The position numbers and the translations under genes were made by a program. DNA of 64,000 bases, taken from the NCBI RefSeq assembly GCF_000026545.1, contig NC_011601.1, one strand, 5' to 3'. This document shows positions 37,202 through 38,577 of the stretch, in pieces; positions within the stretch are counted from its first letter, which is position 1; each line of letters begins with the position of its first letter. This DNA comes from Escherichia coli O127:H6 str. E2348/69. GTDB lineage: Bacteria; Pseudomonadota; Gammaproteobacteria; Enterobacterales; Enterobacteriaceae. The notes under the pieces are model-generated. The model made no database searches. It saw nothing but the letters and a program-made list of their open reading frames with translations, and was not told where the DNA came from.

Positions 37202-37807
37202 TCATTGTGAATAATTGAATAACGGCCCCAGAGATAAAATCGCCAAACTTAAGCACGTTACCCAATCGCCCCACTTCTTCCTATGGCTTCTATTTTTGCT
37301 ACGCCACTGACAATAATATCCCAACGCAAAACCAAGCTGTGCACTAATCGGGCCAACAAAATCAGTCCACGGCTGCGGCCAAAAAGGGGAAAAATTCAGG
37401 GGAAGCCAGACAAACGTCAGAAAGAAATTTCGGATATTTTCCAGCAACGCTGATTTCTCTGGAGAAATATAAAGAATGAAGTTCGAGAGAATTAACCAAA
37501 AATAGACCGGAGAAAAGACCAGCCAGCAATGTAACCTGTTTTTTAATTCAGGAGGCGTTCTGCGCGAGAATTGCCAACCGATGCCACACATTACACTGAA
37601 AAAAAGTGCATATTCAACCAATAACTCAAGTTGTAATTCCTGAAGAGAAATACGCACAACCAGGAGCGGAAAGGAGAATATTATTTCCGCCAGAAAAGTT
37701 AACGTGAATATAAGTACGGCTAAGGCAATAACCGTCGGCCATACCAATAATGGTACGATAACAAAACCGAGAATTACAGGGGGAATATAAAGCCGGAATT
37801 TAATCAT
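37202..37807 (-). CDS. Hypothetical polytopic membrane protein (201 aa), accessory
   Basis: ORF with 4-5 hydrophobic helices; start is 2 bp from the stop of the upstream ORF (coupled); AT-rich codon composition. No motif I recognise. Confidence 0.55.
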   Translation of the reverse strand: MIKFRLYIPPVILGFVIVPLLVWPTVIALAVLIFTLTFLAEIIFSFPLLVVRISLQELQLELLVEYALFFSVMCGIGWQFSRRTPPELKNRLHCWLVFSPVYFWLILSNFILYISPEKSALLENIRNFFLTFVWLPLNFSPFWPQPWTDFVGPISAQLGFALGYYCQWRSKNRSHRKKWGDWVTCLSLAILSLGPLFNYSQ

Positions 37808-37809
37808 TT

Positions 37810-38577
37810 TTATTTTCCTGGTGATTCGGATGATGCGTCATACATCGCGCATAAACACTCATCAATCATCCAGTCGTCTTCCCAGGCCTGATACTGTGTG
37901 CCCTGTTCGGGCTGCTTAAGCGGGTTCTCAATCGCCTGCCGCGCGCGTTCTTTCAGGATGGATTGATTGTTGAAGGCCCAGGCATTGATTTGGGCGGTAA
38001 TGGCTTTATCGATATCGTCCTGGTTATCTCTGATATAACCGTCACGATACGTATTCAATAAACAGGCAAGAGACGCTGCCGACCAAAATCCGGGAACTGA
38101 AATAGTGGCATCAAGCAATGGCGAAAGAGCGATATCGGCACGGAAAAACATTTCCAGCTTGTACTGTAATTCGACAGCCTCATCCCCGGATACCCAATCA
38201 GTCATATACTGGCAAGCAAATTGCTGCAATATTTCCCGTTCATCCTCACGCCAGTTTTCTTTACTGGCAAGGTTGATACGCCGTAGAAAAAATACTTCGT
38301 GAATATTGTCAAATTGCCCCTGCGCAACAAACTCCAGTAAACGAGGCAGAAAATAACGAACCTCATCGCTGTTTTGCGGATCAGGTCCTGGACTACTATT
38401 CCAGGCATTGATTAAGGAATAAGGAATCGCTCGCAACGATGTATTCCGTAATGCTTTTTGTTCCTGTTGACTCAGACAATATTCACAACAAACCACAAAT
38501 TGCTGCGGCGCCGGATAACGACGAAAAATATGATATATCTGCTCAATTAATGCCTGCATGGCAGGAGTGGGGTGCAT
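37810..38577 (-). CDS. Hypothetical soluble protein (255 aa), accessory
   Basis: ORF MHPTPAMQALIEQIYHIFRRYPAPQQFVVCCEYCLSQQ...; no domain I recognise; co-directional and tightly linked with the membrane ORF. Confidence 0.55.
   Translation of the reverse strand: MHPTPAMQALIEQIYHIFRRYPAPQQFVVCCEYCLSQQEQKALRNTSLRAIPYSLINAWNSSPGPDPQNSDEVRYFLPRLLEFVAQGQFDNIHEVFFLRRINLASKENWREDEREILQQFACQYMTDWVSGDEAVELQYKLEMFFRADIALSPLLDATISVPGFWSAASLACLLNTYRDGYIRDNQDDIDKAITAQINAWAFNNQSILKERARQAIENPLKQPEQGTQYQAWEDDWMIDECLCAMYDASSESPGK

Follow-up and report, generated by a model that had tools for sequence, protein, structure and literature searches.

What are the two small genes that lie end to end between glpD and glgP in Escherichia coli O127:H6 strain E2348/69, and do they work as a pair? 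The 64,000 bp stretch of DNA analysed here (the window) is 100% identical to E2348/69 across this region, and the two open reading frames (ORFs), called ORF255 and ORF201 after the number of amino acids (AAs) in their predicted products, are both 'hypothetical protein' in the PGAP/RefSeq annotation (WP_000553743.1 and WP_000589345.1). An earlier reading of the DNA (the original prediction) described them as a co-translated pair of uncharacterised genes, one for a soluble and one for a polytopic membrane protein, that might be the remainder of a three-gene module. Its coordinates, lengths and 2 bp spacing are borne out by the sequence and by PGAP, and both genes are still without functional annotation or family match. 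Profile searches and gene order place ORF255 in a widespread protein family with recurrent ties to RNA repair by RtcB and RlaP. The best overall explanation, to which we give a probability of about 0.45, is that ORF255 is a stand-alone copy of an RNA-damage-repair accessory family and that ORF201 is tied to the PstS-like gene of the same block.

ORF255 and its relatives

ORF255 is predicted to be an acidic cytoplasmic protein (isoelectric point (pI) 4.63, seven Cys, maximum hydropathy 1.2, neither signal peptide nor transmembrane segment). Searches of Pfam, even at E≤10, and of NCBIfam, PADLOC and the PDB sequences gave no match, and its two matches in PHROGs are at chance level (E 0.07–0.09). 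A word-indexed search retrieves only Escherichia/Shigella relatives and a few divergent ones from metagenomes. With a profile, a search of 1.84 billion representative proteins finds 843 relatives at E≤1e-3 and 204 at E≤1e-10, which are mostly 240–270 AAs long and come from Bacteroidota, Proteobacteria, Actinomycetota, Planctomycetota, Verrucomicrobiota, Deinococcota and other phyla. ORF255 matches a profile built from 12 non-Escherichia members with E 3e-40 over residues 6–227 and a profile of the 9 RtcB/RlaP-linked members (see below) with E 5e-35, and BLASTP aligns it with each RtcB/RlaP-linked member at E 8e-8 to 7e-17. By these comparisons ORF255 is a member of a large protein family that has no name. 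The other members are equally absent from the libraries: none of 34 has a Pfam match, none of ten has an NCBIfam match, and the family profile finds nothing among the PDB sequences. The original prediction had left room for homology of the two ORFs to a well-characterised family, and the family-library searches gave no such match.

An alignment of 34 family members conserves a helix of the pattern AYxxFxxY, a Cys cluster (LDVCTxCC in most members and VCCEYC in E. coli), the motif (K/R)(Y/H)FLPRxLEL, one Glu and one Trp. ORF255 has all of these conserved residues (Y15, F18, C30/C31/C34, RYFLPR at 74–79 including P78-R79, E113 and W200), and its Cys spacing, CC-x2-C, is that of the RtcB-linked member in metagenomic locus L103. 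The original prediction recognised no motif in ORF255; this stands as far as library matches are concerned, and gives way to a family-wide Cys motif together with P78-R79, E113 and W200. The AlphaFold2 model of ORF255 (predicted local distance difference test score (pLDDT) 80, predicted template modelling score 0.83) is all-alpha with 12 helices, in which it may resemble the α-solenoid scaffolds of the HEAT/ARM/MIF4G type, and its best matches among solved structures are MIF4G domains (CWC22, eIF4G, NOT1) and TOG/HEAT domains. Foldseek comparison of the model with AFDB50 gives 113 proteins at E≤1e-3. Their sources include Betaproteobacteria, Bacteroidota, Actinomycetota, Deinococcota and Streptococcus; nearly all of those listed are annotated 'uncharacterized', and a few are auto-annotated 'HEAT repeat' or 'DNA alkylation repair'. 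An acidic pI is a trait of the whole family (median 4.9), and with a probable solenoid-like form it makes direct binding to RNA unlikely.

A pattern scan limited to one genome per species located the family in 80 loci from many phyla (1.22 Mb in total). Most of these loci carry a single copy, and tandem paralogues are present in L006 (two), L012 (three) and L075 (two). An RtcB gene lies within 10 kb of the family gene in seven of the 80 (L027, L042, L054, L060, L073, L074 and L086), against an expectation of about 0.3 loci for one RtcB per 4 Mb (Poisson P 4e-8, or 3e-4 when the loci are collapsed to four lineages). Overall, an RtcB/RlaP link is found in 9/80 genome loci and in one metagenomic locus; three of these also contain RtcR, which is divergently adjacent to the family operon in two of the three. 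In Acidovorax kalamii (L042/L099), for which independent gene calls and Pfam assignments were taken from the source, RtcR is divergent from the gene order Band_7 - X - RtcB - RlaP - AAA - DUF2201_N - RtcA, where X is the family gene, and the RtcB and RtcR proteins are close homologues of those of E. coli (E 8e-188 and 7e-204). In a verrucomicrobial metagenome-assembled genome (MAG), RtcR (NF038308, 793 bits; cut-off 650) is divergent from a gene for a 285 AA protein followed by X and RtcB. Four Flavobacteriaceae loci contain Band_7, RtcB, X, a CCA-adding-like nucleotidyltransferase, two RlaP genes and DUF434/DUF5616, and Ferruginibacter has X, Band_7, two RlaP genes and RtcB within 9 kb. Metagenomic locus L103, which holds an independently chosen representative (P0241), has the order RtcR ... 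RtcB - DUF7684 - X - DUF6847 - RtcA. Two MAG loci (L061/L062) encode a 558 AA fusion protein in which X (residues 8–231) is joined to RlaP (PF10127, residues 267–504, E 1e-44). In the family tree the RtcB/RlaP-linked members are spread over at least five separate branches, and the E. coli clade groups with the Acidovorax member. Gene order and fusion show that ORF255-family genes lie time and again within RtcB/RlaP RNA-repair systems or are joined to one of their genes. Members encoded in one operon with rtcB, rtcA or rlaP are those of L042/L099, L054, L103 and the Flavobacteriaceae loci. Long apparent 'fusions' in L079 and L083 were rejected as ORF over-extensions in high-GC DNA.

RlaP extends the 3' ends of damaged RNA by one or two nucleotides, and in Pseudomonas its gene is flanked by rtcB and rtcA (PMC12776372); the gathering of accessory genes around an RtcB core has been described before (PMC6514570). 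The ORF255 family genes occupy the same operons as the known RtcB/RtcR accessory genes (RlaP, RtcA, Band_7, MoxR-type AAA with DUF2201_N, PrfH and archease), and their place there is between Band_7 and RtcB or between RtcB and RtcA. They differ from these accessory genes in that their products have no sequence or fold relation to any of the Rtc accessory proteins, and in that most of them, including the one in E. coli, stand alone away from rtc. Archease, like the ORF255 family, is small and acidic. Clustering of 482 neighbours from ~70 loci yields no neighbour family present in more than five loci and no conserved operon partner, and the small clusters that do recur consist of RNA-repair genes; among 111 same-strand neighbours scanned with Pfam no family is enriched (two or three members each) and no toxin/Imm family is among the 20 most frequent.

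An enterobacterial metagenome contig that is E. albertii-like (L006, 8001–9586) carries two tandem, highly diverged ORF255 paralogues of 262 and 261 AAs, 38–52% identical to ORF255, between aldo-keto reductase and beta-lactamase-family genes. As this is a different chromosomal site, entry of the family into Escherichia-like genomes has taken place at least twice. In a Chitinophagales MAG (L075; 7616–8767 and 9848–10615) a family member has a C-terminal extension homologous to an adjacent 256 AA protein (E 6e-24). Two of the scanned proteins matched DUF4279, presumably the extended L075 member and its 256 AA neighbour, in which case the family would be associated with DUF4279 as a second domain in addition to RlaP.

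The mosaic block between glpD and glgP

Between glpD and glgP the minus strand contains a frameshifted PstS-family gene, ORF255 and ORF201 (Table 1). PGAP agrees with the original prediction in placing both coding sequences 3' of a broken binding-protein gene in the same block, a PstS-family pseudogene that it marks 'frameshifted'. The Shine-Dalgarno sequence GGGAG precedes ORF255, the spacer between the two ORFs is exactly 2 bp (37809–37808), and an AGGA 8 nt 5' of the ORF201 ATG lies within the 3' end of ORF255. We found no convincing internal promoter in the block between the glgP terminator (40299–40274) and the glpD hairpin, and that hairpin, shared with glpD, is the sole terminator-like structure after ORF201. 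Together, these signals support the PstS-like gene, ORF255 and ORF201 as one transcription-unit-like block.

Table 1. Coordinates of the genes and signals of the window that are discussed in the text
Feature	Position	Strand	Description
rtcA-rtcB	29462-31708	-	6 kb from ORF255
Sigma-54 promoter of rtcBA	31747-31762	-	TGGCACGACGGTTGCA; only perfect TGGCAC-N5-TTGCA site in the window
rtcR	31897-33495	+	Together with rtcA-rtcB and the promoter, 4-6 kb from ORF255
glpD	35628-37148	+	Flanks the block
GC-rich hairpin	37156-37180	none	Between convergent glpD and ORF201; glpD terminator
ORF201	37202-37807	-	201 AAs; ATG at 37807, end at 37202; last gene of the block
Junction module	37808-37847	-	Last ~12 codons of ORF255, AGGA (37819-37816), TAA (37812-37810), 2 bp spacer
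ORF255	37810-38577	-	255 AAs; ATG at 38577, TAA 37812-37810
Remnant of 236 AA gene	38580-38666	-	28 in-frame codons (MDIINIFLNAANALFSYQPFMHDQRARE); stop 2 bp before the ORF255 start
PstS-family (PBP_like_2) pseudogene	38680-40187	-	Membrane-anchored; 502 AAs if intact; 'frameshifted' in PGAP
glgP	40314-42761	-	Flanks the block

Comparison of the variants of this locus indicates that ORF255 and ORF201 occupy places 3 and 4, as the intact distal genes, in a mosaic and partly decayed four-gene operon. The full order is a membrane-anchored PstS-like gene, a gene for a 236 AA protein, ORF255 and ORF201, and the site is the glpD–glgP hotspot; the glp–glg interval is named 'hotspot A', with 'conserved hypothetical genes', in a 2026 paper (PMC13185298). 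All four genes, with 2 bp spacers, are present in the A/B1 type (strains FAM21845, S42 and E2865), in which identity of the ORF pair is 91.7–93.3%; the 90–95% identity band holds 1939 genomes. The B2 type (the window and SE15) has the PstS-like gene, ORF255 and ORF201. In the O157:H7/O55:H7 type (~1084 genomes) the PstS-like gene is followed by a gene for a 330 AA lipoprotein PstS paralogue and a 200 AA allele of ORF201. The K-12 type has ~265 bp in place of window positions 37149–39962, so that ORF255 and ORF201 are gone and yzgL (b3427), an N-terminal remnant of the block's first gene, is alone left.

The PstS-family gene of E2348/69 is inactivated by a 1 bp (C) deletion near 39188, in GATAATCCGGTT, and is intact in SE15. 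The intact first-gene protein is like PstS-family binding proteins in carrying a PBP_like_2/TIGR02136 domain, TIGR02136 matching its C-terminal part. ORF255 and ORF201 are related neither to PstS nor to ABC transporter components, and no ABC permease or ATPase genes are present in the block in any variant (window, SE15, O157 type, L095–L098). Intact 502 AA alleles have an N-terminal region with several predicted membrane helices in addition to the PBP_like_2 domain, and the latter, by eye, seems to retain the PstS-like DSGS and DGATA(A)YP anion-binding motifs.

The 236 AA gene is annotated in the A/B1-type loci L095–L098. In the window ~620 bp of it have been lost and its 5' end is joined to its 3' end, as mapped by the correspondence of window 38651–38896 with L096 4074–4320 and of window 38401–38652 with L096 3200–3451. 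The apparent 102 bp 'intergenic' gap 5' of ORF255 is the remnant of this gene, and the three-gene module of the original prediction is thus superseded by the four genes of the A/B1-type strains. A related enterobacterial MAG has the order glgP, 176 AA gene, PstS-like gene, 254 AA gene, 248 AA gene, glpD, in which the 254 AA protein is 73% identical to the 236 AA protein and the 248 AA protein is 69% identical to ORF255; this locus has no ORF201 homologue. The 236 AA gene may be the true conserved upstream partner of ORF255. Its product is Cys-rich and internally repeated and has no Pfam match even at E≤10. A tandem DUF4279 protein was considered for it and is retained as no more than a lead, given this lack of a Pfam match, weak local similarity (E about 0.1), with a faintly DUF4279-like tail, and an internal repeat at E 0.03.

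How the membrane gene comes to be coupled to ORF255 is seen from the O157 variant. In blastn alignments, homology between E2348/69 and O157 ends at ~37847 and restarts at ~38695, which puts the left cassette breakpoint near 37847/37848, and in a three-way alignment the last ~12 codons, the AGGA and the stop–start junction are common to ORF255 and the O157 lipoprotein gene. On these alignments ORF255 and the lipoprotein gene were exchanged by a clean swap of cassettes, the breakpoints of which lie within coding sequence. Since the same junction is found on ORF255 and on an unrelated lipoprotein gene, the coupling belongs to the 5' flank of the membrane gene; the 2 bp coupling is, as read from the sequences, a trait of the conserved 5' junction of ORF201 and not evidence of an ORF255–ORF201 complex. 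In addition, phmmer finds no ORF201 relative (E≤1e-4) in the scanned non-enterobacterial loci with ORF255 relatives. The dedicated co-translated pair of the original prediction is therefore not supported, as the O157 cassette swap keeps the junction, and the MAG and the non-enterobacterial loci have ORF255 homologues without ORF201. The examination of homologue neighbourhoods that it proposed was productive for the ORF255 family (many phyla, some members in RNA-repair loci) and gave no joint occurrence with ORF201 in the non-enterobacterial loci scanned. The tight 'translational coupling' at this hotspot thus stems from cassette exchange and not from a functional pair, which is a caution for operon-based inference of function. 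In O157:H7 FRIK2455 the lipoprotein PstS paralogue (L094 4066–5058, equivalent to window 37848–38694) has the lipobox LLAGC.

Both ORFs are real genes. The pair (1376 bp) is present at ≥80% coverage in 2954/5426 complete E. coli genomes (distant-mode BLAST), so that the possibility, raised by the original prediction, of conservation only in this strain is contradicted, and three E2348/69 assemblies carry both ORFs at full length and without differences. In comparisons with a synonymous divergence (dS) of at least 0.06 among the alleles of E2348/69, SE15, FAM21845, S42 and E2865, the ratio of nonsynonymous to synonymous divergence (dN/dS) is 0.16–0.33 for ORF255; it is 0.20–0.56 for ORF201, with values of 0.21–0.24 against the divergent O157 allele (dS 0.8–0.9), and 0.02–0.12 for the neighbouring glpD. 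Because of these values relative to glpD, ORF255 and ORF201 are constrained, more loosely than a core enzyme. ORF255 alleles are highly divergent within E. coli, and many frameshifted alleles of ORF255 and of ORF201 exist.

ORF201 has a pI of 9.3 and is hydrophobic, with 3–4 segments above the Kyte-Doolittle threshold and ~6 predicted helices, in agreement with the polytopic membrane protein originally predicted; the confidence of its AlphaFold2 model (pLDDT 48) is too low for use. It has no match in Pfam, NCBIfam, PADLOC, PHROGs or the PDB sequences, and its homologues, 66–98% identical, were found solely in Escherichia/Shigella. We infer that it is an Escherichia-restricted polytopic inner-membrane protein. 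In E. coli it is linked to the PstS-like gene whichever middle cassette is present, and this constant linkage across cassette types suggests a joint function; ORF201 thus probably works with the PstS-like membrane protein rather than with ORF255, which is the weakest part of our account. The idea that ORF201 is a paralogue of the PstS-like membrane domain, from an LGYGW/LGYY-like motif, was rejected (BLASTP E>3, hhalign probability 1.9%). The O157-type allele (L094 3464–4066) has a dS of 0.8–0.9 relative to the other alleles, as against ~0.2 for the flanking glpD, which implies that this allele either belongs to an old lineage or was imported from a different Escherichia species. The allele types also differ at the 3' end of ORF201 and in the spacer to glpD, which is 53 bp in one and about 210 bp in the other.

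The role of ORF255

In the explanation that we prefer, ORF255 would be a stand-alone copy of an acidic, all-alpha (HEAT/MIF4G-like) cytoplasmic family with an N-terminal CxxCC-type knuckle. Such a protein would serve as a protein-binding accessory or adaptor of the RNA-damage response, and would dock or regulate RtcB/RlaP-type enzymes or their damaged-RNA/ribosome substrates. Its Cys cluster possibly holds a metal, by which the protein may be stabilised. The E. coli protein would retain the RNA-repair role and would be expressed, if at all, by read-through from the PstS-like gene.

Several observations weigh against this explanation. Roughly 88% of the sampled family loci have neither RtcB/RlaP nearby nor a conserved neighbour, so that the link is facultative, and the acidic pI of the family argues against direct binding to RNA. 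ORF255 is outside the rtc operon, with glpR, glpG, glpE and glpD intervening, and the related MAG has an ORF255 homologue and apparently no rtc genes between glpR and malT. The upstream genes of the operon are broken in E2348/69, which makes expression uncertain; there is no sigma-54 site upstream of ORF255 or of the PstS-like gene, and literature searches for yzgL and the WP accessions of ORF255 and ORF201 gave nothing on function, expression or phenotype. Matches to the sigma-54 site at ≤2 mismatches number 44 in the window, with 43.5 expected by chance, and sigma-54/RtcR control of the ORF255 block was rejected as no site was found. The 6 kb proximity of ORF255 to rtcBA may be a coincidence.

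A bolder version, that the ORF255 family is an unnamed and functionally required RtcB/RlaP component (a cofactor, regulator or substrate-targeting subunit) whose detached E. coli copy modulates the Rtc response, is doubtful. If it is true, over half of E. coli strains, not including K-12, carry a detached copy a few kb from rtcBA. Most work on Rtc RNA repair has been done in E. coli K-12 and Salmonella, and K-12 has lost the whole ORF255 block. Because an unnamed protein is encoded between rtcB and rtcA or beside rlaP in distant phyla, and is once fused to RlaP, the family offers a concrete candidate for an accessory factor still missing from the picture of RNA-damage repair, and its E. coli homologue is tractable. 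What is new is an unnamed candidate accessory family of a known type of system, Rtc RNA repair. Should the RNA-repair link be irrelevant for the E. coli copy, ORF255 and ORF201 would be real genes, yet ordinary accessory ones of a variable region that is already known.

The tight operon spacing kept in thousands of genomes, the synteny of PstS-like, 254 AA and 248 AA genes in another species at 69–73% protein identity, and the constant company of ORF201 and the PstS-like gene in E. coli would all fit a different explanation, in which the whole block is one membrane system around a PstS-like oxyanion-binding protein (for example for phosphate-related sensing or uptake), with ORF255 as its cytoplasmic adaptor and ORF201 as its membrane partner. 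We consider this unlikely, since ORF255 relatives elsewhere never adjoin an ORF201 relative or a PstS-like gene, a lipoprotein PstS paralogue can take the place of ORF255, the block is without permease or ATPase genes, and ORF201 is unrelated to the PstS-like membrane domain (hhalign probability 1.9%). An even less probable account takes ORF255 and ORF201 in E2348/69 as functionless leftovers of a decaying operon, open by chance and no longer expressed. Gene 1 is indeed frameshifted and gene 2 internally deleted in this strain, K-12 is without the whole block, frameshifted alleles of both ORFs are many and no promoter of their own was detected; yet the two ORFs are full length and identical in the three E2348/69 assemblies, dN/dS is 0.2–0.3 across lineages, including B2 strains that share the gene 2 deletion, and gene 1 is intact in the SE15 allele. 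From the sequences, decay is real for genes 1 and 2 of E2348/69, and it leaves the purifying selection on genes 3 and 4 unexplained.

It is also quite unlikely that ORF255 acts as an orphan inhibitor of the immunity type, for example against secreted RNase toxins or those of phages. An acidic helical protein would then neutralise a basic toxin by binding it and would be kept in a recombination hotspot, sometimes beside RNA-repair genes, which would let the cell prevent damage as well as repair it. The family does resemble polymorphic-toxin immunity proteins and orphan immunity arrays in being acidic throughout, helical and patchily distributed in a manner suggestive of horizontal gene transfer, in its locations in variable islands and hotspots, and in its tandem paralogue arrays (two copies in L006, three in L012, two in L075); the high divergence of ORF255 alleles within E. 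coli points the same way, and RNA-repair systems are thought to counter RNase effectors (PMC6514570). It differs from immunity proteins in having no cognate toxin neighbour and no Imm match: the 20 most frequent Pfam families of the 111 same-strand neighbours include no toxin/Imm family, no neighbour recurs in about 70 loci, PADLOC gives no match and PHROGs its two chance-level ones. Moreover, the conservation of the CxxCC, P-R, E and W residues across phyla fits a fixed functional site better than a diversifying interface, and dN/dS is well below 1.

We note that the RtcR-associated loci of A. kalamii (L099 12092–14989) and of the metagenome (L103 6579–8212) contain further poorly known genes (AAA with DUF2201_N, DUF7684 and DUF6847), and it appears that extended Rtc operons serve as a reservoir for accessory proteins that are as yet uncharacterised.

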